A stretch of 64,000 nt of DNA from Acidobacteriota bacterium (GTDB lineage: Bacteria > Acidobacteriota > JAAYUB01): contig JAGNHB010000017.1 in the NCBI GenBank assembly GCA_018001935.1, positions 784 to 64,783 of the forward strand. Direction: 5' to 3'. The notes beneath the pieces were generated by a model. It worked only from the letters and a program-made list of their open reading frames with translations. It ran no database searches and was not told the origin of the DNA. The translations under genes and the position numbers were made by a program. This document shows, piece after piece, positions 30,660 through 62,329 of the stretch (its first letter is position 1; each line of letters opens with the position of its first letter).

Positions 30660-30790
30660 TTCGCAAAAAGTCCTTTTCTCTCACAGAGGCACGGAGGCAC
30701 AGAGAAATGCGAATCGTATTTAATAGAATCAACAATCGTTACGATTCTTCTCCGTACCTCTGTGCCTCTGTGAGATCACAACCAAGACTT
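30660..30790. repeat. Long imperfect palindrome (~40-bp arms) around a low-GC core
   Basis: tcacagaggcacggaggcacagagaaatgcgaatcgta...tacgattcttctccgtacctctgtgcctctgtgag. Confidence 0.55.
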
Positions 30791-34830: not shown

Positions 34831-34851
34831 CCGTGGTCTCGAAAGGCAACC

Positions 34852-47321: not shown

Positions 47322-47398
47322 TGGCAGGCCAGGAGGGACTCGAACCCCCAACATCCGGTTTTGGAGACCGGCGCTCTACCAATTCGAGCTACTGGCCT
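47322..47398 (-). tRNA. tRNA-Trp (CCA anticodon), CCA end encoded
   Basis: Reverse complement: AGGCCAGTAGCTCGAATTGGTAGAGCGCCGGTCTCCAAAACCGGATGTTGGGGGTTCGAGTCCCTCCTGGCCTGCCA. It folds as a cloverleaf. Confidence 0.85.
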
Positions 47399-47410
47399 GC
47401 TCGGGGTACG

Positions 47411-47560
47411 CTACTTGGTTTCCTTGTGCGGCGTGTGCTTCCGGCAGAACTTGCAATACTTGCTCAGGAGATACTTCTCCGTGTGCTTCTTCTTGTTCCG
47501 CGTGGTGGCGTAGTTGCGGTTCTTGCACTCGCCGCACTGCAACTGGACTTTATCGCGCAT
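47411..47560 (-). CDS. rpmG: 50S ribosomal protein L33
   Basis: 49 aa, [49 protein letters not shown]. Not present in the ORF track. Confidence 0.8.
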
Positions 47561-47589
47561 GTCGTTCTCCCCGGCCCGGAAGGACCGAG

Positions 47590-48780
<1,191 letters not shown>

Positions 48781-48821
48781 GATGGTATCCTCCAGTCTTC
48801 GTTTTTTTCATGCGGGAAAAG

Positions 48822-48896
48822 TGGAGCCCAAGACCAGGATTGAACTGGTGACCCCCTCCTTACCAAGGAGGTGCTCTACCACTGAGCTACTTGGGC
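48822..48896 (-). tRNA. tRNA-Thr (GGT)
   Basis: Reverse complement: GCCCAAGTAGCTCAGTGGTAGAGCACCTCCTTGGTAAGGAGG...CTTGGGCTCCA. Confidence 0.85.
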
Positions 48897-48921
48897 CCTG
48901 ACGCGTTCCATTGTCAAGGAG

Positions 48922-48997
48922 TGGAGCGGGAGACGGGATTCGAACCCGCGACCCTCAGCTTGGAAGGCTGACGCTCTACCAACTGAGCTACTCCCGC
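48922..48997 (-). tRNA. tRNA-Gly (TCC)
   Basis: Reverse complement: GCGGGAGTAGCTCAGTTGGTAGAGCGTCAGCCTTCCAAGCTGAGGGTCGCGGGTTCGAATCCCGTCTCCCGCTCCA. Confidence 0.85.
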
Positions 48998-49081
48998 GGT
49001 CAAAGTGCTCCAGGCTCGCCGCCGCCGAGGTCGCCGAGCTGTCGCTCTTCCTCGTGACGTCCGGTTTCGCCGGGAGAACTG

Positions 49082-49166
49082 GTGGAGAGGGGAGGATTCG
49101 AACCTCCGTAGGACCGAAGTCCGGCGGGTTTACAGCCCGCTGCCATTAGCCGCTCGACCACCTCTC
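49082..49166 (-). tRNA. tRNA-Tyr (GTA), long variable arm, CCA not encoded
   Basis: Reverse complement: GGAGAGGTGGTCGAGCGGCTAATGGCAGCGGGCTGTAAACCCGCC...GGTTCGAATCCTCCCCTCTCCA. Confidence 0.8.
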
Positions 49167-49196
49167 CATACCGTTGGTTCAAATAACAGGTTTCAA

Positions 49197-49269
49197 AAGC
49201 TGGCGAGAGGACTTGAACCCCCAACCCGCTGATTACAAATCAGCCGCTCTACCGGTTGAGCTACGCCAG
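49197..49269 (-). tRNA. tRNA-Thr (TGT)
   Basis: Reverse complement: GCTGGCGTAGCTCAACCGGTAGAGCGGCTGATTTGTAATCAGCGGGTTGGGGGTTCAAGTCCTCTCGCCAGCT. Confidence 0.8.
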
Positions 49270-49369
49270 CGCGCGAGCGGGGGAAGTTAGCACAACCGCG
49301 GCCAATCTGCAAGCGAAAACGCAAGGAAGTTTCCCCGGTGGAAATCCTCCGAGCGAATGATGAAGTTTA

Positions 49370-49774: not shown

Positions 49775-50253
49775 CCCTGATCCCCGAGGCGATTCCTCGG
49801 AACACCGCAAACCGCACCCTCGATCTGTAGACGTCCTTCGTCGGAGCCGCGACCGTCAGGGAGCGGTAAGCGTTAAATTCCGACCGTTTGCTTCCGGCGC
49901 GGCCCCGATCCGTTTCAAACCCATTGGACGGCGCCCCTGTCCGCGAAGCAATGCCGCCGATGCGGCCGTTCTCGAATTCGGAGGTTTATCTTCACTCGGC
50001 AGAAAGGGTCCCGGGTTCTCCCCGCCGGGCATGGGAAAGACCATACCCCGGCAATTCTCCGGTAAAGATAATGTGCCGGAGTTCAACAGTGTGATATAAT
50101 CAAATTGCCATTTTTCTCTGCCAGACGTGACGGTCGGGACACGAAAAGTTCATCGGCTTCGACGCGCCTTCCGTCGGGAGTTCCTCCCCGGTTCCACCTG
50201 GTTGACGCGGGAAGAAGCATTCATGGCCCTCTCAACGGATGGGGAGGTTGAAC

Positions 50254-53058
50254 ATGACCCAGGAAGAACCTCCGGGAAAAGACGCTGAACGCGCTCCCGG
50301 CCGCTCCGAACAAGTCGACGAGGCCCCCGGGCGACCCTTGGGGCACGGCCCGGGGAGCCTCGGACGACAGATGGACACCCGGGGAATGGACACCACGCCG
50401 GTCACGGGTTTTCACTTCGACGACGCACCGGAGGGCGCACCACCGGGCGCCCCCTCCCCCGAGGCCTCGGCCGCCGCCTTTTCCGCCGAGGCGCCGAACC
50501 CGGTTTTCCCCGAACCGGACCCGGAGTTCCCTCCCCTGCCGAACGTCCGCTACAACGGTTTCCTGGCGGAAGGCGGGATGGGGCGGCTTTTCCGGGCTTT
50601 CCACCTCGGGCTCTCCATGCCGGTGGCGGTCAAGGTATTAAAGCCCGAGGTGGCCTCCCCCGCCATGCTGGAACAGTTCATCGAGGAGGCCCGCATCGCG
50701 GCGAGGATCCGCCACGCTCACGTGGTGCGCGTGCTGGATTGCGGGATCTCCCAGGGGCGGCCTTTCATCGTCATGGAGTATGTCGAGGGGGAGTCGTCCG
50801 CGGACCTGGTGGAGCGGGAGGGCCCGCTTCCGTGGCAACGGGCCGCCCACATCGTCCGCTGCGTGGCCCGGGGGCTGTCGGTGCTTCACCAGGCTCAGAT
50901 CACGCACTGTGACATCAAACCCTCCAACATCCTTCTGGGGAAGGACGGGTCCGTGGTGCTGGCCGACTTCGGCCTCGCCCGCCGGAACCTCGGGGGGGAA
51001 GGCCCCCTCAAGCCGCGGACCCTGCTGGGGACGCTGCAATACATGGCCCCGGAGCAGGTCCGCAACCCGGGACACGCCGATGTCTCCTCCGACCTCTATT
51101 CCCTGGGGGCGAGTTTTTTCCACCTTCTGTCGGGGGACACGCCCTTCACGGGGTCGATCCTGAAAGTCCTCCAGGCCCTGATGACCGACCAGGCCCCCCC
51201 ACGGCTGGAGAGCCTGAAACCGGGTATCCCCCTGGCGCTCTGCGAGCTGACCCACCGGATGATCGACGTCAACCCCTCCCACCGCCCCGCCAGCGCGGCG
51301 GCCGTCGAACAGGAACTGGACCAGGTCCTCGCCCGGTGCGCCGCCCCCCGGGCCGCCCAGCGCTCCGGGGCCGCCCGGGGAGGCCTTCCGCGCCGTGCCG
51401 TCGACTTCGCCTTTCTCGGCTACGGGAGTTCCGCGGACCCTTGCGGGGACGGCATCCCCCGGCTCTACCTGGACGTGGGAAACTCCCTCGGACCGGGGGT
51501 GATCGACCAGCACCACCTGCTGGCGTACATGGGGTCCACCACTTCGCTGCTCCGGCAACATCCCGAGTTTGTCCGAGCCACCCTGAACCCCGGGGCCGTT
51601 CCGCCGGAGGTCTACACGATCCTGGTGCACCAGCAGCCGGACCTGGACTGCGTCTGCGCCGCCTTCCTGGCTGTCGGCCTCCTGTGCGACGGCGAACTGC
51701 CCGAGGGCGCCGAGGTCCTTTCCCACTACACCGACCGGGTGGACGCGGGGTATTCGGGCACGATCCCCGAGAACCCCTTCTCGCTGTACACGGCCTACGT
51801 GTACCTGAGCCACCGGTTGAGCCTCCGTGCGTGGCGTTGCCCTGAAGACGGCTGGTCCCGTCGCCTGGCGGAGGGGCTCGAACTGGTGGGGTACGCCCTT
51901 CGGGAGTCGCTCCGGGCGGGCGTTTCACTCTGGGAGGTGGACGCCTTCGGCTGCCCGGGGCTCTTCAGCGAAGTCGACCGGAAGGAGGTGCGGCGGGACC
52001 GCGACCGCTACGAGCGGAAGCTCGCCGACCCGGAGTGCAGGGCGCGGATGAGCCGACTCGCCCTGCCGGCCCTTTTCGGAAGCTCCCGGGAGATCGACGC
52101 GCTGATGATCCGCCGTGTCCAGGGGGCTTCGGACCCCGACCGGTGCATCTTCTTCAAGGACTGGGCGAGGTCCGACACCCGCCGGACCGAGACGGGGTTC
52201 ACGTTTCTCTCGGTCTACGAGCCCCTCTCCCCGACCCGCGGGCGGGCCATCCTCTCCGTGAAGCCCGAGAGCGGGCTGATCCTCCGGGGGCTCGGGGAGG
52301 CCCTGGACCGCTCCGAATCCGAGTTGCGCCGGAGCCGCGAAGGGCGGGACCCGCGGCTGGACAGCGCTCCCCGCCAGGGGTATTCGAACGCGGATCCCTG
52401 GTACGACGGGAGGGCCCACGTCTACACCATCGTCGACGCCCCGAGGGAAGGCACCGTCCTGTCGGCGGACGAGGTGGAGGCGCGGGTGCTGGAGTTCTCG
52501 GCCCACAGCGCCATCGGCCCCCGGGCCGCCTTACCCGGCCCGGACCAGCCCACCGCCGCCGTCACCGGGGAATCGGTCCGCTGGTACACCTTCCTGGCCC
52601 GGCAGTGGCGTTGGGAAATGGGGGAGCCCCCGGGCGACGCCGTCCCGTCCGTTCTCGTCTGGACCGTCCCGGACGGTGAGGCGTGGGCCCGGGAAAACCT
52701 GGTTCTGCCGCTCAGGGCGAGGCTCCCCGCGGCAGCGGGCCCCGAGGCCGTCCGGCTGTTCGCCGCGTCGGAGCCGCTGGGCGGGCCCTTGTTGGCGGAA
52801 TTGGCGCGCTGGATCGAGAGGTGCCGGGTGTTCCTCCCCGTCCTGGACGCGTCCTTTCTTTCCCGGGAGGACTGCCTGTGGGCCTTCCAGAGCGCCCTGA
52901 CCCGGGACCCGCGCGGCGAGAAGGGGATCGTCCGGCCCCTGTTCGCGGAGGGGACCGACCTTCCCCGGTGGTGTTCGGAGCTTCGCCGGGGGACGGCCAT
53001 CCCCGCCGCGTCCCCGCCGGCGCTGATCGAGGGGATCGTGCAGGCGTTCGGGCGATAG
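50254..53058 (+). CDS. Eukaryotic-like Ser/Thr protein kinase fused to an unknown ~450-aa middle region and a C-terminal TIR-like (flavodoxin-fold) domain
   Basis: The kinase has a GxGxxG-like GGMGRLF, VAVK, HCDIKPSNILL, DFGLAR and APE. The C-terminal 160 aa read SVLVWTVPDGE...RLFAASE...CRVFLPVLDASFLSREDCLWAFQSAL...IVRPLFAEG, which resembles a TIR beta-alpha pattern. RBS GGGGAGG before ATG at 50254. Confidence 0.8.
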   Translation: MTQEEPPGKDAERAPGRSEQVDEAPGRPLGHGPGSLGRQMDTRGMDTTPVTGFHFDDAPEGAPPGAPSPEASAAAFSAEAPNPVFPEPDPEFPPLPNVRYNGFLAEGGMGRLFRAFHLGLSMPVAVKVLKPEVASPAMLEQFIEEARIAARIRHAHVVRVLDCGISQGRPFIVMEYVEGESSADLVEREGPLPWQRAAHIVRCVARGLSVLHQAQITHCDIKPSNILLGKDGSVVLADFGLARRNLGGEGPLKPRTLLGTLQYMAPEQVRNPGHADVSSDLYSLGASFFHLLSGDTPFTGSILKVLQALMTDQAPPRLESLKPGIPLALCELTHRMIDVNPSHRPASAAAVEQELDQVLARCAAPRAAQRSGAARGGLPRRAVDFAFLGYGSSADPCGDGIPRLYLDVGNSLGPGVIDQHHLLAYMGSTTSLLRQHPEFVRATLNPGAVPPEVYTILVHQQPDLDCVCAAFLAVGLLCDGELPEGAEVLSHYTDRVDAGYSGTIPENPFSLYTAYVYLSHRLSLRAWRCPEDGWSRRLAEGLELVGYALRESLRAGVSLWEVDAFGCPGLFSEVDRKEVRRDRDRYERKLADPECRARMSRLALPALFGSSREIDALMIRRVQGASDPDRCIFFKDWARSDTRRTETGFTFLSVYEPLSPTRGRAILSVKPESGLILRGLGEALDRSESELRRSREGRDPRLDSAPRQGYSNADPWYDGRAHVYTIVDAPREGTVLSADEVEARVLEFSAHSAIGPRAALPGPDQPTAAVTGESVRWYTFLARQWRWEMGEPPGDAVPSVLVWTVPDGEAWARENLVLPLRARLPAAAGPEAVRLFAASEPLGGPLLAELARWIERCRVFLPVLDASFLSREDCLWAFQSALTRDPRGEKGIVRPLFAEGTDLPRWCSELRRGTAIPAASPPALIEGIVQAFGR

Positions 53059-53244
53059 GCGCTTTAGCAGCTGCGTTCTTACCAACATGTTGTCGTTTCC
53101 GGTTGCCTTCCCAGGCCACTGTTACCGGGCGAAGTCCCGGAAAAAGCGCAGGCCCTTCGAAGTGAGATCTTTGGCAAAATGAGCAAGATTTGAGATCGTC
53201 GGTGGGCTCCCACCGCTTTCGGAGCAGGGAAACCCGATGAGGGC

Positions 53245-53540
53245 ACGGAGGGAATCCCCACAGCGTCGCCAGGCAGTTCCCAGGGCTGAAATGCCCCGCT
53301 CGTGCCGATCCTGGTCCGGAATCGACGAGAAAAGTCTCTCGCCAAGACGCCAGGATGCAAAGCCTCGCAAAGGGATCCCCCTTTTCCGGTTCCGGCTTTG
53401 CGTCTTGGCGAGAGGTTGAGACCGCCTGTTTTTTATTTTCTGTTTTCTTCGTTCGTGTGGTTCGTGTGGTTCGTGGTTCTTTTCCCTTTCGTGTATTCCG
53501 TGTATTTCGTGGTTCCTTCTCCGGTTTATCCGGCTTGGGC
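53245..53540. repeat. Repeat family E copy 1: ~100-nt structured stem-loop (tctcgccaagacgc...gcgtcttggcgaga), U-tract, then 9-bp iteron-like direct repeats (ttcgtgtgg x3; cgtgtattc x2), directly upstream of gene start 53557
   Basis: A homologous copy lies at 60657..60940 and a partial copy at 55195..55245. Each sits immediately 5' of a + strand gene. Confidence 0.7.
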
Positions 53541-53556
53541 ATCCCAGGAGGTCCCC

Positions 53557-54492
53557 GTGAAAGAGCGCTACATTCGCGAGATCCTGTCGGGTTTTCCCTA
53601 CCCGATCACCGCCTACTTCACGAAGCTGGGGACGGACGAGTGCCTGGACCCCGGCCCGCTGCGGCTGAAGTACCTGCTGGCCACGGGGGAGGCGGTGGGG
53701 CGGTTCCTGGGGGTGGTGGTCCTGGCCGAGGTGCGGGACCGTCTGGAGGAGCCGGGGGCGCCGTCGCTGCCGGCGTCCCTGGTGTCGGACTTCGCGAAGC
53801 GGTACCGGTCGCCCTCGTGGGGGAACTGGCTGCACTTCGCCCGGGAGGGGCTCAAGTGGCTGAGCCTGGGCGGAGTGAGCCTGGTGATGCCGGAGCTGAC
53901 GGGGTTTTACTTCGGGAAGTTCCCGGCGGAGAGCGAGGCGGCGGAAGCGCTGGGGAAGATGCTGACGCTGCGGAACGGGCTGAGCCACGAGCGGATCCGG
54001 GCGATGACGGGGCGGGAGTTCCAGGGGCTGTGCGAGGAGGCGGAGCCGCTGCTGGAGGCCGTGCTGACGGCGCTCGCGTTCCTGCCGGACCACGAACTGG
54101 TGTTCGTGAGCCGGATCGAGGTGACGAAGCGGCGGCGGACGCCGGCGTCGTTTTTGCACCGGCTGAGCCGGATCGTGGGGGACTCGTCGGACTTCCGGGG
54201 GGACCGGAAGACGCTGCCGCGGTACCTGGACCCGGGGTGCATCCTGCTGGAGGGGGAGGGGGAACGGCTGCTGAACCTGGACCCGTTCCTGGTGTACGAG
54301 CCGTCGGCGGGGAAGGCGCCGGACGTGTTCTTCTACGACGGGTTCAAGCGGGCGGGGAGCGCGGAGTACGTGGCGTGCAACCACGGGGGGGGCTTCGGGA
54401 GCGCGGCGGCGGAACGGGGCGGCGAACTGTGGGAGGAGGCGGCGTACCTGCTGCGGCTGGTGACGGGCGAAGCGCCCGGCCAGGGGGCGTGA
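53557..54492 (+). CDS. Hypothetical protein (no recognisable domain) boxed in by inverted iteron blocks
   Basis: 312 aa with a GTG start after AGGAGG. Strong GC3 bias. No catalytic motif recognised. Confidence 0.55.
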   Translation: MKERYIREILSGFPYPITAYFTKLGTDECLDPGPLRLKYLLATGEAVGRFLGVVVLAEVRDRLEEPGAPSLPASLVSDFAKRYRSPSWGNWLHFAREGLKWLSLGGVSLVMPELTGFYFGKFPAESEAAEALGKMLTLRNGLSHERIRAMTGREFQGLCEEAEPLLEAVLTALAFLPDHELVFVSRIEVTKRRRTPASFLHRLSRIVGDSSDFRGDRKTLPRYLDPGCILLEGEGERLLNLDPFLVYEPSAGKAPDVFFYDGFKRAGSAEYVACNHGGGFGSAAAERGGELWEEAAYLLRLVTGEAPGQGA

Positions 54493-54600
54493 GGGTGCCG
54501 GGAGGACTCGGATTGAACCACGAAATACACGGAATACACGAAATGAAAAACAGCATCTTCTGCACGGTTTACGCATATTGTTTGGTCTGTCCTGTGAAAT

Positions 54601-55020
54601 ATGGCATATTTCACTCGACAAATCGGGCAAATCAGGAAGCAGATGAATAAAGAGCATTTAATAGAAGCGCTTACGGAATGGAACTTCTGGAAACGGCCGT
54701 TTCCCCCGACCCTGAATCGCCCGGCTTATGAAACGGAATTGACCCGGAAAGCGTCCGCCGGGGAAATCGTGGTCCTCAAGGGAGTCCGTCGGAGTGGAAA
54801 ATCCACCCTCCTGATCAACACGATCAAGTCTCTGCAGGCGGGCGGGACCCCACCCGAGGAGATCCTCTACGTGAACCTCGAGGACCCGCGGTTTTCCGGT
54901 GACCTGCGGCCGGAATTCCTCCAGGAGATCAAGGACACCTTTCTGGAATACCTTGCTCCCCGGCGAAACCCCTGGATCTTTCTCGACGAGATCCAGAATG
55001 TCGCGGGGGTTGAAAAGTGA
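54601..55020 (+). pseudogene. Truncated AAA_14/DUF4143-family ATPase (N-terminal 139 aa only); paralogue of 61058..62329
   Basis: Walker A GVRRSGKST and Walker B IFLDEIQNV are present. It ends at VEK-stop where the full-length paralogue continues for ~280 aa. A 21-bp perfect palindrome gtgaaatatggcatatttcac overlaps the ATG. Confidence 0.6.
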
Positions 55021-55261
55021 CTGGCAAAGGAACACGACCTGGGCGGGGGAGGCGCGGTGGAACTGCTGATCCTGGCTCCGGATCGGGAGGAGGTCATCCC
55101 GGTCAACGGGCGGCAGGTCCGGGTCCGAAACCTCCTGAACTGGCTGTTGGAGGCCCAGGCATGAAGAGCATTGAACAGCCGGAACCTCGGAGCCCTTGGC
55201 GAGGCTTTGCGTCTTCGCGCCTTGGCGAGAGGCTTATAACATCGACCGATCGAGGTGAGCC

Positions 55262-58200
55262 ATGACTGAACCCGAACGCCCGGACGGTCCCGAGTCTTTG
55301 GACGACCTTTTCGGCCCGGTGAAGGAAGCCGCGGCGTTAGGGCGGAAGCCCTTCAAGTTCCTCGACCCCTACGGTCCCGAGGACGCCGACCTGTTCTTCG
55401 GGCGGGACCCGGAGATCCGGGAGGTCTACGCACGCTACTACGGGAGCCGGCTGCTGCTGGTGTACGGGGAGTCGGGGGCGGGGAAGACCTCGCTGCTGCA
55501 GTGCGGGCTGCGGGGGCGGGTGCCGCCGGAGGAGGCGCTGTTCGTGCCCTTCCGCTCGGGGGAGGACCCGCTCGAATCCCTCCGGCGGGAAGTGCTGCGC
55601 CGCGTGGCGTTCCCCGACGGGGCGCCGGAAGACGACCTGGAGCTGCTGCGGGAGGCGGCGTTCCGGAAGCGCAAGACCCTGGCGCTGGTGTTCGACCAGA
55701 TGGAGGAGTGCTTCCTCTTCGCGCCGAAGGCGGCGCGGGAGCGCTTCGCGAAGGCCCTGGCGGCCTGGATGGCGGCGGGGGTGAACGTCAGGGTGGTGCT
55801 GTCCATCCGGGAGGAGTACCTGGCGCGGCTGGGGGAGTGGGAACCGCTGCTGCCCGAGCTGTACCGGAACCGGCTGTGGGTGCGGCGGGTGGACTTCGGG
55901 GACGTGAAGGAGCTGGTGGAGGGCCCGTGCCGGGCGGTGGGGGTGCCGGTGGAGCCGGACCTGACGGCGGCCGTCACGCGCCTCTTCGAGCGGGAGGCGC
56001 GGGGGGTGGACCTGCCCACGTTCCAGGTGCTCATGGACCGGCTGTACGACGAAGCCTCCACGCGCGGCGAGACGCCGGTGGCCCTGAAGGCGGCGGACCT
56101 CGAGCGCGTGGGCGGCCTGGAGGACGTCCTGGCGGCGTTCCTGGAGCGGGCGGCGTCGGAGCTGCCCGACCCGGCGGCGGGGCGGGAGCTGCTCAAGGCC
56201 ATGGTGTCGGCGGAGGGGACGAAGCTCCGGGCCGGGGCGGAGGCGCTGGCAGCGGGGGCCGGCCTGGACCCGGCGGCGGCGGTCCCGCTGCTGGCGTCCC
56301 TCGAAACCGCGCGGGTGGTGCGCCGGCTGCCGGAGGGTGAGGAGTGGGAGCTGCGGCACGACCGCCTGGCGAAGGTGGTGTTCGGCTGGCTGTCGGAGAC
56401 GGAGAAGGACCTGCTGGAAGCGCGGCGGATGGTGGAGGGGCGTCTGAAGGACTACCAGTCCCGGGGCCTGCTGCTGGACACGGCGGCGCTGAAGGCGATC
56501 GTGCCCTTCGAGAAACCCCTCTCGCGGCACCCGGCCACGGCGGAGCTGATCCGGAAGAGCCGTGAGCACCTCGCGGCCCTCTCCCGCCGCCGGAAGCGCC
56601 TCGTCGCCGAGGTCACGGGCATCGCCTTCCTGGTGCTGGCGCTCTTCACCGTCTGGAACGTCCGCGAGCGCCGCGCGGCGGAACGGGAACGCGATCGGGC
56701 GGAGCAGATGGCTGCCGAGGTTCGGGCAAGCGAGGCGAAAACCACACAAGCCTTCGCTCTTTCCCTCTTCCACCGGATGGAAATCGCCTTGGAAAAAGGC
56801 CGGCGAAACGAGGTCATCTCCCTCCTCGTGGGGGCCATACGGCTATCACGCGCCAATGGGCTTTATCTGGACCGGCTCGTGAATCAATTGACGGTTGTCG
56901 GTATCGCCCTGCCCGTTTCTCCACCCCTGCGTCATTCGGACGAGGTTTGGTACGTCGCCTTCAGCCCCGACGGATCAAGAGTGGCTACGGGATCTGCGGA
57001 CAAGACTGGCCTAGTATGGGATGCGCGGACAGGGGTTGCGTTGACGCCTCCGTTACAGCATGGAGGTCCCGTCAGCGGAGTAGCCTTCAGCCCGGATGGA
57101 GCCAGAGTGGCCACGTCTTCATGGGATGGCACTGCGCGGGTATGGGATGCGCGGACAGGAGCGGCCTTGACAGCCCCGCTTCGCCACGAGAAAGCCGTCG
57201 ACCGGTGTATCACCTTCAGCCCGGATGGAACCCGCCTGGCGACCGGTTCCATGGATAATACCGCTAGGGTCTGGTGTTCACAAACGGGGAAAGCGATTAC
57301 CCCTTCGCTGAAACACGGGGGGCTGGTCTTTGCACTTGCATTCAACCGGGACGGCACAAGGCTGGCAACGGCTTCTTTCGACAAGACCTCCCGCGTGTGG
57401 AATGCCCTGACAGGAGAACCGGTTACGGCTCCGCTAAAGCATGATGACGAGGTTGTGGACGTCGCGTTCAGCCCAGATGGAACCAGGGTGGCAACCGCGT
57501 CGCTTGATAAAACAGTCCGGATCTGGGATGCACGGACTGGCGCGGCGGTGACGGCCCCGCTGATGCATGAAAACAAGGTCTGGAAGGTCGTGTTCAGCCC
57601 GAATGGGAAGCAGGTCTTTTCTTTCACCGACACTTCGACGTATATCTGGAATGCCCAAACAGGTGAGTCGATTGAAATTCCCTTCAGAGATCATCAATGG
57701 AGTTGTGTGGCATTCAGCCCTGATTTGACGAGGGTCCTTTCACAGAATCCGAATTGCGCACGCGTGAAGGACATACGAACGGGAGCCACGGTCACGGAAT
57801 TCATGCAACACAACGCAACCCTCTTGCTGGGGATTTTTAGCCCGGACGGGCAGTGTGCTGCCACGTATTCCAGGGATCAGACGGCTCGCATCTGGGACGC
57901 CCGCGGGAGAGGGGCCCTGCCGATTCCTTTGAATCTTGAGAATCGAGGAACCTGTGCTGCCTTCAGCCCGGACGGGACACGATTGGCGGCGCCAAGCGGA
58001 GATCGTGGGGTAAGGCTTTGGGACACAAAATCCGGAGGGGAGATTCTGCCCTCACTCAGGCCTGAAGGCAAGATAGGTTATATCGGTTTCGACCCGAGAG
58101 GGCTTCGGGTGGCCACCGTGTCCGATGTTGCGGCGCAGCTCTGGGATGCCCGGACAGGGCAACCGCTGTGCGCACCCTTGAGGCTTTCCACCACCATCCG

Positions 58201-59191
58201 CGCGTTTGCCTTCAGCCCGGACTGGGGATGTCTGGCCATGGCCTCCACGGACAGAACCGTCCAAATCTGGGAAACACGAACAGGATCGGCATTGAAAGCC
58301 CCCCTTCGATGCGACGGCGATATCCTGGACCTGGCTTTCCACGCGGACGGAACTCGATTGGTCGTGCTGTGTGGGGATCGCACAACCTGGCTTTGGAATT
58401 TCCGGAAAAGGACCTTTGAAAAGGTCACGCTGCGGTGTGGGGAAAAGTGTGACATATACCTGAGTCCTGAGGGGACGAAAATCGCCTCACGATCCGAAAA
58501 TCAAAGTGTAGTGCGGGTCTGGGATGCCCGGACAGGTTTGGCATTGACGCCACCGCTGAAGCACGAGGCTCCAGTCAAGTTCATTACTTTCAGCTTGGAT
58601 GGGACTCTGCTAGCCACTGGATCTTTATGGATAGTGCATCTTTGGGACCTGCGTACCGGCGCGGCAACAGCAAAGCTAATTCATGAAGGAATGGTCGAGG
58701 GAGACGCTTTCGTCCCTGTCATCAACGCAAGCTTCAGCCAAGATGGCACGCGATTGATTACGGAAACAAAAGACCGAGCCGTCCGGATCTGGGATGTCAA
58801 AGCGGGGGCGATGGCCACCGAACCGCTCCAGCATGACGAGCCTGTACACTTTGCTATTTTCAGTCCTGACGGGAAGCGGGTGGCCACGATGTCAGGCGAC
58901 CACACCCTGTTGGTCTGGGACCTCGGGCTCGGGCTTCGGAACCCGCCCGACTGGTTCTTGAGCCTGGCCGAAGGGTTGGCGGGGTTGCGGTTAGACGATT
59001 CGGGCAACTTGATCCCCGTGATCGATTCCTGGGACCGTCTCCAAAAAGCCCGGGCAATCGCTGCGACAGGAGATCCAACAGATCCGTGGATTCACTGGGC
59101 GCGCTGGTTCCTGGCCGACTGCGACACGCGCACTGTCTCCCCTTCCTCCGACGCCACCGCAGCGCAATACCGCGCCCTCCACCCCCGGTGA
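55262..59191 (+). CDS. STAND-type P-loop NTPase - helical region - single TM helix - ~14 WD40 repeats (1309 aa)
   Basis: Walker A LVYGESGAGKTSLL and Walker B LALVFDQMEE. A TM helix IAFLVLALFTVWNV at ~aa 455. Repeated motifs VAFSPDG.R.AT.S.D.T.R.WDA.TG from there to the C-terminus. Confidence 0.85.
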   Translation: MTEPERPDGPESLDDLFGPVKEAAALGRKPFKFLDPYGPEDADLFFGRDPEIREVYARYYGSRLLLVYGESGAGKTSLLQCGLRGRVPPEEALFVPFRSGEDPLESLRREVLRRVAFPDGAPEDDLELLREAAFRKRKTLALVFDQMEECFLFAPKAARERFAKALAAWMAAGVNVRVVLSIREEYLARLGEWEPLLPELYRNRLWVRRVDFGDVKELVEGPCRAVGVPVEPDLTAAVTRLFEREARGVDLPTFQVLMDRLYDEASTRGETPVALKAADLERVGGLEDVLAAFLERAASELPDPAAGRELLKAMVSAEGTKLRAGAEALAAGAGLDPAAAVPLLASLETARVVRRLPEGEEWELRHDRLAKVVFGWLSETEKDLLEARRMVEGRLKDYQSRGLLLDTAALKAIVPFEKPLSRHPATAELIRKSREHLAALSRRRKRLVAEVTGIAFLVLALFTVWNVRERRAAERERDRAEQMAAEVRASEAKTTQAFALSLFHRMEIALEKGRRNEVISLLVGAIRLSRANGLYLDRLVNQLTVVGIALPVSPPLRHSDEVWYVAFSPDGSRVATGSADKTGLVWDARTGVALTPPLQHGGPVSGVAFSPDGARVATSSWDGTARVWDARTGAALTAPLRHEKAVDRCITFSPDGTRLATGSMDNTARVWCSQTGKAITPSLKHGGLVFALAFNRDGTRLATASFDKTSRVWNALTGEPVTAPLKHDDEVVDVAFSPDGTRVATASLDKTVRIWDARTGAAVTAPLMHENKVWKVVFSPNGKQVFSFTDTSTYIWNAQTGESIEIPFRDHQWSCVAFSPDLTRVLSQNPNCARVKDIRTGATVTEFMQHNATLLLGIFSPDGQCAATYSRDQTARIWDARGRGALPIPLNLENRGTCAAFSPDGTRLAAPSGDRGVRLWDTKSGGEILPSLRPEGKIGYIGFDPRGLRVATVSDVAAQLWDARTGQPLCAPLRLSTTIRAFAFSPDWGCLAMASTDRTVQIWETRTGSALKAPLRCDGDILDLAFHADGTRLVVLCGDRTTWLWNFRKRTFEKVTLRCGEKCDIYLSPEGTKIASRSENQSVVRVWDARTGLALTPPLKHEAPVKFITFSLDGTLLATGSLWIVHLWDLRTGAATAKLIHEGMVEGDAFVPVINASFSQDGTRLITETKDRAVRIWDVKAGAMATEPLQHDEPVHFAIFSPDGKRVATMSGDHTLLVWDLGLGLRNPPDWFLSLAEGLAGLRLDDSGNLIPVIDSWDRLQKARAIAATGDPTDPWIHWARWFLADCDTRTVSPSSDATAAQYRALHPR

Positions 59192-59733
59192 ATTTAATGA
59201 AAAGCAATTTTTTCTTCGGGAGTTACGAATATTGTTCGATCTTTCCTGAGAAAATAGCATATTTGATGCCCTCGTAAAAAGACACGCGGTGCAGGGGAGG
59301 GTTGGAAGCAAATTTCGGGCTTAGTGAAAGCGAAAATCGGTCAGACCCCGGTTTTTCCCTGTCAGCAACAGTAAATTTTTAAGCCATCAGCAACGATGTA
59401 GGACCAGGCCAATTGGAACTAGCCCCATCCGTGGGGAGGTGGTAATAAACTCTATACAACGTTTCAGCTGCCCTTCTAAAAGCTCTCTTACTGTCTCTTC
59501 TCGATGACCTAATTCAATACCGCTGCTTTGGCCTCATTCCTGACCGCTGCTGACAGTTTTTCCCGAACGACCCCCTGAAAAACGAGACGATCGTCCCCCG
59601 CGCGACGAAAAAGGAGACGAAGAAGGGCGAATCAGCCGTAGCAAGCGTCCCAGCGGCCTGCCCGGCTTCCTATTCCGCATAGGTTTTACGCGAGGCTTCC
59701 ACCAGTCGGGTCGCCCGGACTGCCACCCCCCGG

Positions 59734-60231
59734 GTGTGGGACGTCCGGTCGGGGTTGACGGTGACCGGGCCGTTGGGCGGGTCCGCGGAAAGTGCCGCGG
59801 ACCCGCACGGGGCGGGAAAGGTGTACGACGAGCTGATGGAGTGGGCCGACGGCCCGGCCGGGCCGAACCTGATGACCGTGGGGTACGACGGGTACGTCAG
59901 GGCCTGGGAGCTCGGGCTCGGCCTGCGCAACCCCCCCGGCTGGGTCCTGGACCTGGCCGAGGCGGTCACGGGGCTGCGGCTGGACGAAACCGCCTATCCG
60001 TTGCAGATGCCGGCCGCCGAGGTGTGGGAGCGGATCCGGCGGGCCCGGGAGGAGGCGGCGCGCGGGGACCCGAAGGACCCCTGGGTCCGCTGGCTGCGCT
60101 GGTTCCTGGCGGACCGCGACACCCGGACCCTCTCGCCCTTCTCGGACGTCACGCCGGCGCAGTACCGCGACCTCCACCCGAACCCGGCGCCGGCCCCGAA
60201 GACCCCTGCCCCGCCGGGTGCCGGGCCCTGA
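59734..60231 (+). pseudogene. Orphan fragment homologous to the last WD repeat + C-terminal ~90 aa of the 55262..59191 protein
   Basis: WELGLGLRNPPGWVLDLAEAVTGLRLDE...DPKDPWVRWLRWFLADRDTRTLSPFSDVTPAQYRDLHP aligns to ...WDLGLGLRNPPDWFLSLAEGLAGLRLDD...DPTDPWIHWARWFLADCDTRTVSPSSDATAAQYRALHPR. There is no start context, and the frame is open upstream into low-GC DNA. Confidence 0.6.
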
Positions 60232-60268
60232 CCCTCTGAAGGTTCGGAGTAAAAGCGGTTGTTATTAA

Positions 60269-60565
60269 TTTCCCCCGCGCGCCGCAGGGTCCTCACCCCG
60301 TCAGGTTAAATGTTGGTATTAAAAGAGGTTATTTTTCATTCCCCCCGCGCGCCGCCGGGGGTTTACCATACTCCGGAGCGCCCTCCCGGCCGGCGGCGCG
60401 CGGGGGAGGAGAATATTTATAACTGCCTTTTCTACAAATATTTCACCCCTGACGGGGTGAAGACGCGGCGGGCACGATCCCGGCGGGTCGAGGGCATGGC
60501 GGGCACGATCCACACGGGGCGAGAACGCGGCGGGCACGATCCCGACAGAGTGGGGACGCGGTGTA
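60269..60565. repeat. Composite repeat copy D: degenerate hairpin+TIR half copy, full GC palindrome, TIR ttctacaaatatttcacccctgacggggtga, ~4 tandem 30-bp units
   Basis: Same architecture as copies B and C. The tandem units are gacgcggcgggcacgatcccggcgggtcgagg and similar. Confidence 0.7.
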
Positions 60566-60656
60566 CACGACCCTGGCGGGGAAGAACGCCTTGCTCCCGC
60601 CACCTTCGGGGTGGGTTTGTTTTTGCGAGGCGTCGTTTCTTCCCCGGGGCGGGGAC

Positions 60657-60940
60657 GGAGGAGGGAATCCCGGCAGCGTCGTCCGGCATGCCCCGGGGCT
60701 AAAATGCCCCACTGGTGCTGATTCGGTTCCGGAATCGACGTATCCGGTCTCTAGCAAAGACGCAAAGCCTCGCAAAGGAATCCCCCTTTTCCGGTTCCGG
60801 CTTTGCGAGGCTTGGCGTCTTTGCGCCTTTGCGAGAGGTAAAGACCGCCTGTTTTTTTTCTGGAGCGTCCGGATGATCCGTGCCCATCCGTGTTCATCCG
60901 TGTTCATCCGTGGTTTCTCTCCGGTTTATCCGGGTTGGGA
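60657..60940. repeat. Repeat family E copy 2 (structured stem-loop + 10-bp direct repeats atccgtgNNc x4) upstream of the full-length AAA_14 ATPase
   Basis: It shares ggagggaatccc...gctaaaatgcccc...ccggaatcgacg...caaagcctcgcaaagg.atccccctttttccggttccggctttgcg...cgagagg...gaccgcctgttttttt...ctccggtttatccgggttggg with copy 1. Confidence 0.7.
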
Positions 60941-61057
60941 CGGCCTTTTCGGTGAGGATGGAATTCTAGCCGGACCTTCGTCGGAGCCAGGAAAAGCGAG
61001 GTCGGCTGCGCATGATAATTCTTGAACTGCACAAATAATCATGTTATTGTGCAGTTC

Positions 61058-62329
61058 ATGATCACTGATGCGATATATCAACACAGAATCGAACGGGACC
61101 GGAATCTCGCCGCTCCCACTGTTCCGAGAGAGTTACTCCGCGGTGCGCGGGCGGAGATGTCCAGTCCGCTGATCAAGGTCATCACGGGTCCGCGACGGGC
61201 CGGCAAGTCGGTTTTTGCGTTTCAACTGCTTGCCGGTCAGAATTTTGCTTACATCAACCTTGACGATGAACGCCTGGTCGGCCAGCGGGATTTCGACGAG
61301 ATCATGAAGGCCCTGGTGACGGTCTACGGCCCCGTCACTTCCCTGCTTTTCGACGAGATCCAGAATTTCCCCAGCTGGGAGTTGGTCGTGAACCGCCTTC
61401 ACCGGCAAGGGTATGCCATCGTCGTCACCGGCTCCAACGCCCACCTTCTCAGCCGCGAACTCGGCACCCATCTCACGGGACGGCATGTGGAATTCCGGAT
61501 TCTGCCGTTCTCTTTCCGGGAGTACTGTCTCGCCCGGGGAGAAACCGCAAGGCAGGGCATGCCCGATCCCGAAGCCGTGATGCTCCATCGCTTCGGCCAA
61601 TACCTCGAAACCGGCGGTTACCCCGAAGTCGTCATCGGGGGGGTACAGGCAAAGAGCTATCTCGCCACCCTTTTCGAAAGCGTCCTTTTCAAGGATGTTG
61701 TTAAGCGGTACCGGGTCAAATACCCGCGGAAACTCCATGAACTGGCTCTCTACCTCACCTCCAATCACTCCAGCGAGTACACGTTCAATGCCATCAGAGG
61801 GGCTCTTGGTTTCCGAAGTGTTCATACCGTGGAGAACTACACCGCCTACCTGGCGGAGTCATACCTCTTCTTTTCGGTGGAGCGTTACTCCCCGAAGCTT
61901 AAGGAGCTGTTCAAGGCTCCCCGAAAAGCGTATTCCATAGACCTCGGCCTGATCGATGCCGTCAAGTTCAAGAGTCTGCCGGACCGGGGCCGACTGCTGG
62001 AAAACCTGGTTGCCCTGGAACTGCTCCGCCGGGGAAACCGCTTCTATTCCTACAAATCCGCCGGCAGCAGGGAGTGCGACTTCGTCGTCCGCGAGGGGAA
62101 CACAACGGCCGAACTGATCCAGGTGGCTTATGAGACCCCTTCGCCCAAGACCTTCAAGCGTGAACTGACTGGCCTGGCCGCCGCGGCGAGGGACCTCTCC
62201 TGCGATCGCCTGACCTGTCTGACCTGGAACGAGACCTGGGAGCGGCGCATCGACCGGTGGAAAGTGAAGGCCCAACCGGTATGGCGGTGGTTGATGGAAA
62301 GCCGCGACACCGGTCCCCCTGAGGCCTGA
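61058..62329 (+). CDS. AAA_14/DUF4143-family ATPase (full length)
   Basis: Walker A ITGPRRAGKSV, Walker B LLFDEIQNF, and a C-terminal DUF4143-like region. Start taken at MITDAIYQ (61058). A 34-bp palindrome gaactgcacaaataatcatgttattgtgcagttc sits immediately upstream. The track start at 61022 lies inside the palindrome. Confidence 0.75.
   Translation: MITDAIYQHRIERDRNLAAPTVPRELLRGARAEMSSPLIKVITGPRRAGKSVFAFQLLAGQNFAYINLDDERLVGQRDFDEIMKALVTVYGPVTSLLFDEIQNFPSWELVVNRLHRQGYAIVVTGSNAHLLSRELGTHLTGRHVEFRILPFSFREYCLARGETARQGMPDPEAVMLHRFGQYLETGGYPEVVIGGVQAKSYLATLFESVLFKDVVKRYRVKYPRKLHELALYLTSNHSSEYTFNAIRGALGFRSVHTVENYTAYLAESYLFFSVERYSPKLKELFKAPRKAYSIDLGLIDAVKFKSLPDRGRLLENLVALELLRRGNRFYSYKSAGSRECDFVVREGNTTAELIQVAYETPSPKTFKRELTGLAAAARDLSCDRLTCLTWNETWERRIDRWKVKAQPVWRWLMESRDTGPPEA

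Follow-up and report, generated by a model that had tools for sequence, protein, structure and literature searches.

A duplicated non-coding mosaic element of an Acidobacteriota genomic island carries tandem-repeat arrays resembling those of uncultivated phages

Background

The closest known kind of sequence to the element described here is the cyanobacterial STRR repeats. These are intergenic 7-bp tandem repeats of heterocyst-forming cyanobacteria, which form hairpins and for which a role in transcript stability or translational coupling has been proposed (PMC2670836). REP sequences are imperfect palindromes of 20-40 bp; one end bears a GTAG or CGTC tag, and they have a cognate RAYT transposase (PMC3733652). 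In Planctomycetota populations, intergenic tandem repeats vary in length (PMC9426551).

We analysed a non-coding element, termed element E, in a 64-kb stretch of an Acidobacteriota metagenome-assembled genome (MAG), hereafter the window. Element E comprises a head (M0), a long hairpin (M1) whose stem arms are inverted arrays of the 8-nt unit CTTKGCGN, a T-tract, and tandem arrays (M2) of the 9-10-nt unit TTYCGTGNN that end in CGTGG. Similar to STRR repeats, the short units lie head to tail in few copies (2.4-3.7 copies of 8-10 nt according to TRF) and only in non-coding DNA, several unit types are present in the window, and inverted arrays form hairpins (z about -4.8), as STRR repeats do between genes of one transcript, for instance hupS and hupL. 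However, the units (CTTKGCGN, TTYCGTGNN) measure 8-10 nt and not 7, the likeness considered here is one of layout, and the carriers are an Acidobacteriota MAG and many uncultivated tailed phages instead of heterocystous cyanobacteria. Because of the unit length of 8-10 bp and the assignment of the genome to Acidobacteriota by its EF-Tu, element E would be an analogue of the named cyanobacterial families and not a member of them. Its arrays have a fixed build, with a pyrimidine tract, about three units, and CGTGG or GCG-NGAGA as the last unit; we know of no STRR description that includes such a build.

Like the REP, BIME and REPIN sequences of Gammaproteobacteria, the arrays are extragenic, often follow stop codons within operons, and occur singly or as inverted hairpin pairs, and the combination with other motifs in element E recalls the mosaics of BIMEs. 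Unlike in REP sequences, the arms are tandem arrays of 8-9-nt units, and the same units appear across very different genomes. Neither a terminal GTAG/CGTC tag at the array ends nor a RAYT gene among the scanned ORFs of the window was detected.

Copies of element E and their genomic context

Local alignment and blastn bore out the two full copies and one partial piece that had been proposed for this element. Copy 1 (53247-53539, +) has a length of 293 nt and copy 3 (60660-60939, +) of 280 nt; they align locally with approximately 74-80% identity and with indels (blastn E = 9e-37), and AGACCGCCTGTTTTTT and TCTCCGGTTTATCCGG are conserved letter for letter between them. The partial piece, labelled copy 2 (55189-55235, +), was recovered by blastn (E = 1e-9 and 4e-9), by motif scan and in the sequence itself. 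It is composed of four 8-nt units (CTTGGCGAGG CTTTGCGT CTTCGCGC CTTGGCGAGAGG) and lacks the 5' arm, the head and M2.

Copy 1 is flanked upstream by a kinase-TIR gene (stop at 53058) and downstream by the gene of a 311-aa protein (GTG at 53557, RBS aggagg), and ends 17 nt 5' of that GTG. The fragment ends 27 nt before the ATG of a STAND gene (55262). Copy 3 lies approximately 118 nt from the ATG of an AAA_14 gene (61058), the gap being filled by an unrelated AT-rich leader with a palindrome of its own; close by on its 5' side are a terminator-like hairpin (60595-60624) and an array of 31-nt repeats. The element had been described as lying directly upstream of three island genes, which applies to copy 1 at most. 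The fragment matches the 3' stem arm alone. A Pfam search of the nine island ORFs identified kinase-TIR, AAA_14, nSTAND1-WD40 and DUF4143 domains, and four of the nine had no match.

All array sites of the window are intergenic. The indels between the copies of element E are not multiples of three, and six-frame translations of both copies matched none of 5.8 billion predicted proteins at E <= 10. A coding reading was rejected: only copy 1 has an open frame that runs from TTG 53416 into the 311-aa gene, and the homologues have no such N-terminal extension. The repeat search and the copy alignment detected no terminal inverted repeats of the whole element.

In two relatives, L012 and L013, whose protein is 82% identical, the kinase gene and the 312-aa gene are separated by a spacer of 130 nt that does not contain element E, and in a third, L014, the 314-aa and STAND genes overlap. 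Since orthologous kinase / 311-aa / STAND operons are without the element, it is not a conserved leader. Of the proposed duplicated 5' leader, a duplicated, modular and non-coding element stands, whereas a leader role could concern one gene at most. The arrays entered both junctions of the ancestral kinase / 311-aa / STAND operon, and the 290-nt mosaic was duplicated once within the island. The island is absent from relatives with a syntenic tuf-rpoB region. An exact look-up of the 311-aa protein returned one 1-kb Logan contig (L001), and the same look-up with EF-Tu and with a 433-aa ORF returned no record.

Two solo M2 arrays of the window had been overlooked in the original prediction. One of them (54515-54550, -) begins 22 nt past the stop of the 311-aa gene in inverted orientation, and is found at the same place in L012 and L013 (17 of 17 nt identical). 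The other (29886-29912, -; blastn E = 8e-6) reads TTCGTGTGG TTCGCGGGG TTCGTGG followed by TTATAAT, and is located between the stop of vapC and the start of a potA-like ABC ATPase gene.

Modules of element E

The head M0 of copy 1 (53247-53327, +; GGAGGGAATCCC...GGAATCGACG) is present in copies 1 and 3 only (60660-60740 in copy 3), with 78% identity over 104 nt. This 85-nt head is private to element E: no relatives were detected in 1.1 Mb of array-bearing phage loci, in the metagenome and genome scans, or in the six-frame translation search.

The M1 hairpin occupies 53334-53422 (+) in copy 1, with the termini GTCTCTCGCC...GGCGAGAG..GAGAC, and 60746-60846 in copy 3. Predicted folding energies were -49.4 kcal/mol (z = -4.93) and -55.2 kcal/mol (z = -4.74), respectively, and none of 200 shuffles folded as stably. 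The long imperfect stem noticed earlier is thus real, with z about -4.8 against shuffles; the opposite strand folds with about equal stability. The internal mini-hairpin cctcgcaaag/ctttgcgagg is complete in copy 3, whereas copy 1 lacks 18 nt at this place. The 5' and 3' arms contain four and two CTTKGCGN units in copy 1, three and four in copy 3, and none and four in the fragment. These counts differ between arms; it is an array that is kept and not a fixed helix.

A pyrimidine/T tract (CGCCTGTTTTTTATTTTCTGTTTTCTTC; 53423-53450, +) follows the hairpin, with its counterpart at 60847-60866 in copy 3. A U-tract common to the copies had been predicted, and AGACCGCCTGTTTTTT is indeed identical in copies 1 and 3. 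Intrinsic terminators consist of a G+C-rich hairpin with a U-run 0-2 nt after it. Here the U-run begins 5-6 nt past the main stem. An alternative small hairpin lies beside the U-run in both copies, but with z about -0.5 it is not better than shuffles. The terminator scan gave a weak call in copy 1, at this alternative hairpin, and nothing inside copy 3.

In copy 1, M2 is divided into two sub-arrays. Sub-array A (53451-53479, +), identified by TRF with 100% match and by the motif cluster scan, consists of 2.8 copies of TTCGTGTGG with CGTGG as the last unit. Sub-array B (53488-53515, +; TTTCGTGTA TTCCGTGTA TTTCGTGG) lies in the left arm of an inverted repeat of 36 nt; the right arm is the solo array at 54515-54550 (94% complementary). 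The tail CCTTCTCCGGTTTATCCGGCTTGGG (53516-53539, +) includes a 16-mer that is identical in copy 3, where the M2 array occupies 60876-60912 and the tail 60913-60939. TRF reported direct repeats of 9 bp x 2.8 and 9 bp x 2.4 in copy 1, and of 10 bp x 3.7 in copy 3. Direct repeats at helical-turn spacing had been predicted; the repeats are present, but copy 1 and the wider family repeat every 9 bp and not once per helical turn. Folded as RNA, the M2 region of copy 1 shows no more structure than shuffles (z = +1.08). Masking of an anti-SD sequence by the tail motif CCTTCTCC was considered and rejected, as the fold is at shuffle level (z = 0.07).

Type III toxin-antitoxin systems (ToxI-like) carry tandem repeats of approximately 34-45 nt 5' of an endoribonuclease gene, with a terminator in between. 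Element E does not correspond to this arrangement, since its units are 9-10 nt long and the hairpin with U-run stands upstream of the repeats and not downstream.

Searches against known motifs

The element had not been recognised as a known riboswitch, and this agrees with the Rfam search, in which no family matched: tRNAs alone scored at or above the gathering threshold in the window, and at E <= 10 both copies gave chance miRNA-type matches only (13-17 bits). No sigma-70 promoter was predicted at the element copies or at the 29.9-kb site, and no sigma-54 or ECF motif conserved in both copies was seen by eye. Integron attC sites, a tRNA 3'-end/att site, DnaA boxes, Chi sites, CsrA or Hfq motifs and MraZ boxes were dropped on inspection. 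A scan of genome contigs with the pattern TTCCGGTTCCGG..AGACCGCCTG, covering GTDB representatives, among which the source MAG is not included, gave chance matches only. A metagenome scan with a 19-mer of the hairpin loop gave 21 chance matches with dissimilar flanks, and literature searches with the motif strings gave no match.

Related arrays in uncultivated phages

The IMG/VR scan with the M2 pattern CGTGNNTTYCGTGNNTTYCGTGG returned at least 120 stretches, and that with the M1 pattern CTTBGCGNCTTBGCGNCTTBGCG also at least 120, where approximately one would be expected by chance according to our own estimate. The M1 unit and the GCG-(N)GAGA terminus are both present at the phage sites, and the M1 family sites among the matches listed end in (N)GAGA, as in element E. 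The M2 family, again among the matches listed, has a 9-bp period, a T/C-rich tract upstream and 'ttaa' downstream. Arrays of both families in these phage contigs consist of a pyrimidine tract, three units, and GAGA or TTAA. The region of sub-array B (positions 238-270 of copy 1) shares 32 of 33 bases (97%) with phage contigs L037/L039, and its core TTTCGTGTATTCCGTGTATTTCGTGGTTCC is identical in phage contigs. The tail motif 'CTCTCCGG' also follows arrays in five GC-rich phage contigs (L068, L073, L078, L085, L118). Only positions ~184-277 of copy 1 have relatives in the M2-selected phage loci. M1 and M2 arrays occur together in five of the 117 M2-selected loci listed, and neither was found in 208 kb of control loci.

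Among the matches listed, M2 sites reach up to six per 12 kb of contig, and array density in phage contigs is 3-6 sites per 5-13 kb. Sites were found between terS/terL/portal genes and between MuA/MuB-like genes, and many are located 6-25 nt from start codons or directly after stop codons. An inverted partner is present on the T-tract side in 28 of the 111 sites listed, and on the other side in one. Such inverted pairs often occupy the whole spacer from a stop codon to the following ribosome-binding site: of the 57 paired elements listed, 29 have the end of a coding ORF 0-55 nt ahead of the left arm, and 31 have an ORF start -11 to +75 nt past the right arm. The interior is variable (10-250 nt) and unrelated between elements. 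A strict hairpin-plus-T-run terminator lies just 5' of the family arrays in three of the 116 sites listed. Mismatches between paired arms were G:T in 50 cases, A:C in 47 and other in 100, with no enrichment of G:U on the sense strand. Relative to the flanking genes, the solo arrays listed are 36 sense and 35 antisense.

The RNase III sites of phage T7 are intercistronic stem-loops, which are not built of tandem repeats and are specific to T7. Like phage intercistronic stem-loops, the paired arrays are long hairpins between genes of one transcript, several per phage genome; unlike the T7 sites, the majority of the sites are solo, non-hairpin arrays (74 of the 111 listed).

The same unit sequence is found again and again in contigs of 46-68% GC that share no proteins, and dozens of other unit types are densely present in the same phage contigs. 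Short tandem repeats amount to 5.2-6.6 per 10 kb in phage contigs, 1.9 in the window and 0.72 in controls.

Possible function and alternative explanations

We consider element E to be a lineage-private non-coding mosaic, and not a single evolved RNA or operator, with a probability of about one half. Its composition of M0, M1 and M2, together with the membership of M1 and M2 in two widespread families of short tandem-repeat intergenic sequences, is very probable. The arrays may grow, shrink and homogenise by replication slippage, which would leave the units alike within an array yet different between copies, as with the periods of 9 bp and 10 bp.

Regarding function, our best guess is operon punctuation at the RNA level, a suggestion made from sequence that we hold tentatively and at less than even odds. 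The M1 hairpin and U-tract could act as a 3'-end, attenuation or insulation signal behind the upstream kinase gene, and the unstructured, pyrimidine-rich M2 run could be the leader of the 311-aa gene, just 5' of its Shine-Dalgarno sequence. In phages, the paired form would have one stem base against the upstream stop codon, while the other would carry or abut the downstream Shine-Dalgarno sequence, as would be expected of an arrangement for translational coupling or differential mRNA stability. However, the hairpin of copy 1 lies 276 nt from the upstream kinase stop codon, and the coupling geometry of the phages is therefore inapplicable to element E. The paired-arm mismatches without G:U enrichment argue against selection on a strand-specific RNA helix, and the even orientation of the solo arrays is not easily explained by an RNA-level role of these arrays. 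In addition, the same unit across contigs of such different GC content requires either a shared recognition factor or horizontal spread, neither of which punctuation by itself provides.

The original prediction compared the direct repeats with OmpR/PhoB-type operators and with plasmid-like iterons. OmpR/PhoB operators have direct repeats 10-11 bp apart in fixed position and orientation relative to a promoter, and replication iterons, of approximately 17-22 bp, occupy a single locus of a replicon, next to a rep gene and an AT-rich unwinding region. Neither comparison could be maintained. The family has a 9-bp period, an orientation of approximately 50:50 and many sites inside operons 10-20 nt from starts or directly behind stop codons; no receiver or winged-helix domain was identified by Pfam among the nine island ORFs, although a cognate regulator could be encoded elsewhere. 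As to iterons, the units have 8-10 bp, the scanned island proteins include no rep gene, and each phage genome carries many sites. What comes closest to the regulator-site idea, and is also the main rival to punctuation, is a DNA-level operator or roadblock in which about three unspaced 8-9-bp units would be bound by a small repeat-reading protein controlling the 311-aa gene via M1 and/or M2. MetJ reads tandem 8-bp metboxes and the omega repressor reads 7-bp heptads, direct or inverted; in such tandem short-box operators (MetJ, pSM19035 omega, ParR/parC iterons), the cognate ribbon-helix-helix protein is encoded nearby and there are one or few sites per replicon. The arrays resemble these operators in their unspaced repeats of 7-11 bp, variable in number, direct or inverted and beside gene starts, and differ from them in that no cognate protein was found here and that many sites per phage genome occur inside late operons. 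An operator would account for unit cores that are conserved while the paired arms are not kept complementary and their mismatches show no wobble bias, for an orientation that is free with respect to genes but uniform within a contig, for arrays so close to start codons (6-25 nt) that a protein on them would obstruct initiation or elongation, and for a motif that recurs in very different genomes, which suggests a shared recognising factor. Nevertheless, no protein family was present in more than 14 of the 122 array-bearing loci listed (a weak test, as the contigs are partial), and no DNA-binding regulator occurs among the nine Pfam-scanned island proteins, four of which have no match at all. 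Moreover, one protein per unit type is implausible with dozens of other unit types in the same contigs, and a 9-bp period would place successive sites on different faces of the helix. We regard the operator as rather unlikely.

Nearly identical arrays in unrelated contexts and genomes, a paired form with inverted ends and a variable interior of 10-250 nt, an orthologous site without element E, and arrays inserted at both junctions of the ancestral operon would also be expected from selfish mobile palindromes of the MITE/REPIN type, in which inverted arrays are ends for a transposase or HUH enzyme encoded elsewhere, element E is a composite, and solo arrays are decayed halves. This is unlikely, because the paired elements have no target-site duplication and their flanks continue the inverted symmetry, the interiors are unrelated from element to element, element E as a whole has no terminal inverted repeats, and no transposase or RAYT-like gene was found among the scanned ORFs of the window or as a shared gene of array-bearing loci. 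A second species carries the array behind the 311-aa gene at the identical position, which indicates age or constraint and not recent hopping. For the same lack of terminal inverted repeats and of flank duplications at paired arrays, a MITE or IS end was rejected. A small RNA gene, or an attenuator or riboswitch-like leader, would make of M0, hairpin and U-tract an RNA of approximately 180 nt in which pairing of the 3' arm with GTTGAGAC before the U-run switches termination. It would fit the stable hairpin with its conserved U-run, the mutually exclusive small hairpin by the U-run in both copies, and the position of copy 3 behind a good terminator, where it would need its own promoter. It is very unlikely in view of the missing Rfam match even at E <= 10, an M0 without relatives, indels of 8, 18, 3 and 14 nt between copies 1 and 3 inside the supposed structure (local alignment), an alternative hairpin at shuffle level, orthologous operons without the element, and the lack of a detected sigma-70-like promoter. 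Least probable of all, and only barely conceivable, is phase variation by inversion of the 311-aa gene between the arms of the 36-nt inverted repeat (53480-53515 and 54515-54550). The arms are 999 nt apart and bracket exactly the gene and its RBS, and Logan contig L001 begins and ends inside these repeats; however, its ends are asymmetric relative to the repeat, the scanned island proteins include no recombinase, both arms are ordinary members of the M2 family found elsewhere as solo arrays, and the right arm is ancestral, being present in L012, which has no left arm.

Returning to operon punctuation, a broader proposal, which we find doubtful but worth stating, is that both array types, (TTYCGTGNN)3-CGTGG and (CTTBGCGN)3-NGAGA, may be cis-sites of an undescribed widespread mechanism. 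This could be a DNA- or RNA-binding repeat reader, or a ribosome-linked coupling device whose repeat-built stem has the upstream stop codon at one base and the downstream Shine-Dalgarno sequence at the other. It would serve the tailed phages of poorly cultured phyla, Acidobacteriota among them, to set operon expression ratios. Element E would then be a host copy gating a kinase / HEPN-like / STAND conflict operon.

Implications and occurrence outside phages

The apparent 'leader' of this putative defence operon is a recent insertion and is not to be taken for a dedicated sensor or a riboswitch. The widespread membership of M1 and M2 outside this genome is beyond the reach of a single-sequence reading. 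If functional, the arrays would be a compact and easily recognised operon 'grammar' for phyla almost without experimental genetics, could be of use in delimiting transcription and translation units and in assigning phages to hosts, and would give a handle on the 30-year-old question of the role of STRR-type repeats. A 23-base pattern locates arrays at gene boundaries in hundreds of uncultivated phage genomes, and the paired form offers a testable geometry, with a stop codon at one stem base and a ribosome-binding site at the other. Should the arrays be neutral products of slippage, they would still single out a class of genomes in which short tandem repeats are 7-9 times as dense as usual, which matters for assembly and variant calling.

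No such arrays were found in cultured phages. Among plasmids, one coding look-alike was present in Caballeronia, and one convincing array in Parabacteroides distasonis, after hisS. Other arrays of the window have the units CACAGAGG (paired, 30680-30780), CAGCCTA, and CGATAC/CGGTAT.

Structure of element E

Element E is an intergenic repeat with two full copies, which align over 53247-53539 (copy 1) and 60660-60939 (copy 3) in a local alignment and with blastn (E = 9e-37, 74% identity including gaps). Its original description as two full copies with a stable stem and direct repeats was accurate according to alignment, blastn, folding and TRF. A third, partial copy had also been claimed, and blastn does match 55189-55235, although this fragment holds only the 3′ arm of the stem. 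The position directly upstream of three genes applies to copy 1, which abuts the gene start, but to no other copy. Against shuffled sequence, both stems are far more stable: that of copy 1 has a predicted energy of -49.4 kcal/mol (z = -4.9) and that of copy 3 one of -55.2 kcal/mol (z = -4.7), and the stems of the opposite strand are equally stable. In copy 1, TRF detected two runs of direct repeats with a 9-bp period (2.8 and 2.4 units), and in copy 3 one run with a 10-bp period (3.7 units), so that the proposed helical-turn spacing holds for copy 3 but not for copy 1.

The stem arms are tandem arrays of the 8-nt unit CTTKGCGN, with 4/2, 3/4 and 0/4 units per arm in copy 1, copy 3 and the fragment. 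We named the parts of the element M0 (85-nt head), M1 (8-nt-unit hairpin), T-tract, M2 (9-10-nt arrays) and 24-nt tail. Element E is a mosaic: an inverted pair from the CTTKGCGN family makes up the hairpin, and the so-called phased repeats belong to the TTYCGTGNN family, as a solo array. What is private and duplicated is only the head and this particular way of combining the parts. Copies 1 and 3 differ by indels of 8, 18, 3 and 14 nt, so that the element is non-coding and does not keep a fixed fold. Since units are alike within an array and different between copies, we infer that the arrays turn over by slippage.

Solo M2 arrays on the minus strand were found at 29886-29912, in the gap from the stop of vapC to a potA-like gene start, and at 54515-54550, starting 22 nt past the stop of the gene for a 311-aa protein. 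The latter forms with 53480-53515 a 36-nt inverted repeat (94%) around this gene. Sub-array B of copy 1 and this inverted array are identical at 34 of 36 positions, which suggests local copying between them.

A frame that begins with a TTG at 53416, next to GAGAGG, stays open across the T-tract and both arrays as far as the 311-aa gene (53416-53556), and would add a very hydrophobic extension of 47 aa (RPPVFYFLFSSFVWFVWFVVLF...) if used. This frame was taken as chance and rejected as real coding, because the homologues begin at the GTG and copy 3 has an in-frame stop.

The gene island and its relatives

The island with element E adjoins a tRNA cluster (47325-49270) and the tuf-rpoBC region. 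The source genome, an Acidobacteriota genome assembled from a metagenome, encodes an EF-Tu with its closest named relatives in Acidobacteriota/Blastocatellia (80-86% identity). The island encodes a Ser/Thr kinase that weakly matches TIR (50239-53058), the 311-aa protein (53557-54492, GTG start, RBS aggagg), an nSTAND1-WD40 protein (55262-59191) and an intact AAA_14-DUF4143 protein (61058-62329). An AAA_14 pseudogene (54551-55165) has lost its middle part and retains the N-terminal 125 aa and a C-terminal remnant, which ends at 55165. PADLOC models match two of the island genes: the kinase (PD-T4-6) and the intact AAA_14-DUF4143 gene (PDC-S01). No Pfam domain was detected in the 311-aa family, and two homologues (P0020 and P0024) score just under the threshold for HEPN_MAE_28990.

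The AAA_14 pseudogene carries an AT-rich leader, of which a second copy (about 70% identical by eye) lies at 59195-59300, starting after the STAND stop and with no gene behind it. The end (60025-60179) of a 165-aa ORF (59734-60231) has 71% DNA identity to the 3′ end of the STAND-WD40 gene (59030-59184), and the ORF looks like a remnant of a second STAND gene. Just 5′ of the AAA_14-DUF4143 start, a 34-nt palindrome (61016-61049, GAACTGCACAAATAATCATGTTATTGTGCAGTTC) with perfectly complementary 15-bp arms and a central CATG resembles an operator and is unrelated to element E.

The 311-aa protein has widespread homologues (60 matches, 38-82% identity), and the gene order kinase, 311-aa protein, nSTAND1-WD40 (50239-59191) recurs in distant taxa (L012, L013 and L014). 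In L012 and L013, whose protein is 82% identical, a 950-aa kinase lies 5′ of the gene with a spacer of 130 nt that shows no trace of element E, which is thus not a conserved leader. In L014, a 314-aa gene overlaps the nSTAND1-WD40 gene. These loci show the ancestral arrangement, and the 293-nt element between kinase and 311-aa gene was therefore added in this lineage. The same holds for the 770 nt that separate the 311-aa and STAND genes and hold an inverted M2 array, the AT-rich leader, the internally deleted AAA_14 pseudogene and a solo M1 array. The inverted M2 array 3′ of the 311-aa gene is also present in L012 and L013 at the same position (17/17 nt identical), and is thus older than the other additions.

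Scans for further copies in the genome and in metagenomes with the hairpin-loop sequences gave chance matches only, and the six-frame translation of both copies matched no spurious proteins. Judging from these searches, M0 and this M1 loop seem to be private, and the local element is a lineage-private patchwork. The interest lies in the two array families, which the search for further copies did recover in IMG/VR.

M1 and M2 arrays in phage contigs

The exact M2 17-mer TCCGTGTATTTCGTGGT was found in five IMG/VR contigs, in four of them inside a similar 9-bp array. The degenerate pattern CGTGNNTTYCGTGNNTTYCGTGG matched at least 120 IMG/VR stretches, with up to 6 sites per 12 kb. The 120 unique M2 sites among the matches listed share an upstream T/C-rich tract, T at the first variable position and a last unit ...CGTGG, often followed by TTAA. 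GC-rich contigs run on with ...GCACCTCTCCGG, resembling the tails of copies 1 and 3, and L075, L119 and L157 each carry two sub-arrays, in one of which the unit is 10 bp long, like that of copy 3. When element E was compared by blastn with the M2-selected loci, only positions ~184-277 of copy 1 matched. The M1 pattern CTTBGCGNCTTBGCGNCTTBGCG gave at least 120 IMG/VR matches versus about 1 expected by chance (our own estimate), and the listed sites end in (C/T/A)GAGA, exactly as element E (...CTTGGCGAGAGG). M1-type sites are present in 5 of 117 M2-selected loci, and neither type occurred in 208 kb of unrelated control loci. Two simple 23-base patterns serve as markers of gene boundaries, both in this host and in the genomes of hundreds of uncultivated phages.

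The carriers of M2 arrays are real tailed phages, in which the arrays lie inside operons: 5′ of terS, between terL and portal genes, 5′ of terL, and between MuA- and MuB-like genes of a Mu-like phage. About 30% of the M2 sites are accompanied, within 300 nt, by a partner array in inverted orientation, which nearly always lies towards the T-tract. By the strict two-unit pattern, partners are found 28 times upstream versus once downstream, and when single units are counted, 37 of 111 sites have at least one upstream partner and 74 have none. The paired M2 form is a palindrome of 64-300 nt, 5'-CCACGRAA..CACGRAA-[spacer]-TTYCGTG..TTYCGTGG-3', and the paired M1 form is 5'-TCTCGCG..-[spacer]-..CGCGAGA-3'. 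The palindrome often starts at the upstream stop codon and ends just before the next Shine-Dalgarno and start. Of 57 paired elements examined with our own crude calls (ORF and GC3), 29 have a coding ORF with its end 0-55 nt ahead of the left arm, and 31 have an ORF with its start at -11 to +75 nt from the right arm. A strict terminator just 5′ of the arrays is rare (3 of 116 sites). The arrays of any one contig share the same orientation relative to genes.

A group of related large phage contigs from IMG/VR sample 3300045988 (L045, L052, L061, L062, L066, L109, L110, L124 and L137) shares a variant, CCGTGGGTT x 3 with inverted AACCCACGGAACCCA ahead, and the site and its flanks are kept across the group. 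No such arrays were found in cultured phages. The plasmid collection yielded one clear case from a cultured member of the Bacteroidota, Parabacteroides distasonis NZ_OY725790 (118080-118150; L159/L160), with an inverted pair of CCGTGT-type 9-nt arrays directly 3′ of hisS and no further arrays within 50 kb around it. Neither the array patterns nor their strings are described in the searchable literature.

Putative function and alternative explanations

With modest confidence, we propose that the arrays act as operon punctuation at the RNA level. The hairpin and U-run past the kinase gene would serve as a 3′-end or attenuation signal, and the M2 run as an unstructured pyrimidine-rich leader ahead of the ribosome-binding site. 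As RNA, the M2 region folds no better than shuffled sequence (z = +1.08). The paired form of the phages, with an upstream stop codon at one stem base and a downstream ribosome-binding site at the other, has the geometry that is classical for translational coupling. Translational coupling has also been suggested for the cyanobacterial STRR repeats (PMC2670836). STRR-type repeats are nearest to element E in look and putative working; however, their unit has 7 nt versus 8-10 nt and the phylum differs, so that element E is not a member of that named family. REP/BIME are similar in their mosaic build, but have a GTAG/CGTC tag and RAYT, neither of which was seen for element E. Element E also failed the membership tests for the OmpR/PhoB-type operator and plasmid-like iterons of the original prediction, and for MITEs, type III antitoxin repeats and riboswitches. 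The earlier view that it is no known riboswitch agrees with the Rfam search, which found no family at gathering thresholds or at E <= 10.

The main rival to RNA-level punctuation is recognition of the arrays, as double-stranded DNA, by a repeat-binding protein. This would fit the free orientation of the arrays relative to co-directional flanking genes (36 sense, 35 antisense; 14 convergent and 6 divergent), the lack of wobble bias in paired-arm mismatches on either strand (G:T 50, A:C 47, other 100), and the identical units in genomes of 46-68% GC. Nevertheless, no candidate protein was found, and the large number of unit types also argues against it. The array carriers have no protein family in common, although with pieces of only 1-15 kb this test is weak. 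A selfish mobile palindrome is less likely, the paired elements having no target-site duplication, and so are an sRNA or attenuator and an inverton.

Other short repeats

Short tandem repeats with many different units are unusually dense in array-bearing phage contigs (5.2-6.6 per 10 kb versus 0.72 in controls). The window has 1.9 per 10 kb and has further units in common with phage contigs. A paired CACAGAGG/CCTCTGTG element at 30680-30780 (TCTCACAGAGGCACGGAGGCACAGAGA, a spacer of ~45 nt, CCTCTGTGCCTCTGTGAGA) lies beside a vapBC pair and is built like the hairpin of element E from a different unit; the CCTCTGTG unit also occurs in phage contigs. Similarly, the unit of a CAGCCTA / CCTACAGCCTAAACC tandem array (26024-26068) is found 3′ of an M2 array in a Mu-like phage contig (L121, about 8725-8760).

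The hexamer arrays CGATAC x 4.5 (33445-33471) and CGGTAT x 6.3 (35260-35297) also have units in common with the phage contigs; they are inverted relative to each other and lie 1.8 kb apart, with a membrane-protein-like ORF and an array of 31-nt units between them. Another dispersed repeat family, of larger size, was found at 8245-8466, 22261-22620, 34796-35184 (minus strand) and 60239-60590, each copy with a G+C-rich hairpin (TTCCCCCGCGCGCCGCCGG...CCGGCGGCGCGCGGGGGA), then TTTCACCCCTGACGGGGTGA, then 31-nt units x 3.5-7. Copy 3 of element E lies directly 3′ of one such copy, and 53094-53156, 5′ of copy 1, is sequence found after the 34.8-kb array. Directly after a gene stop, 25597-25818 contains a 65-nt unit x 3.4 (96% match), each unit with two G+C hairpins and a T-rich stretch, and looks like a stack of terminator-like units.
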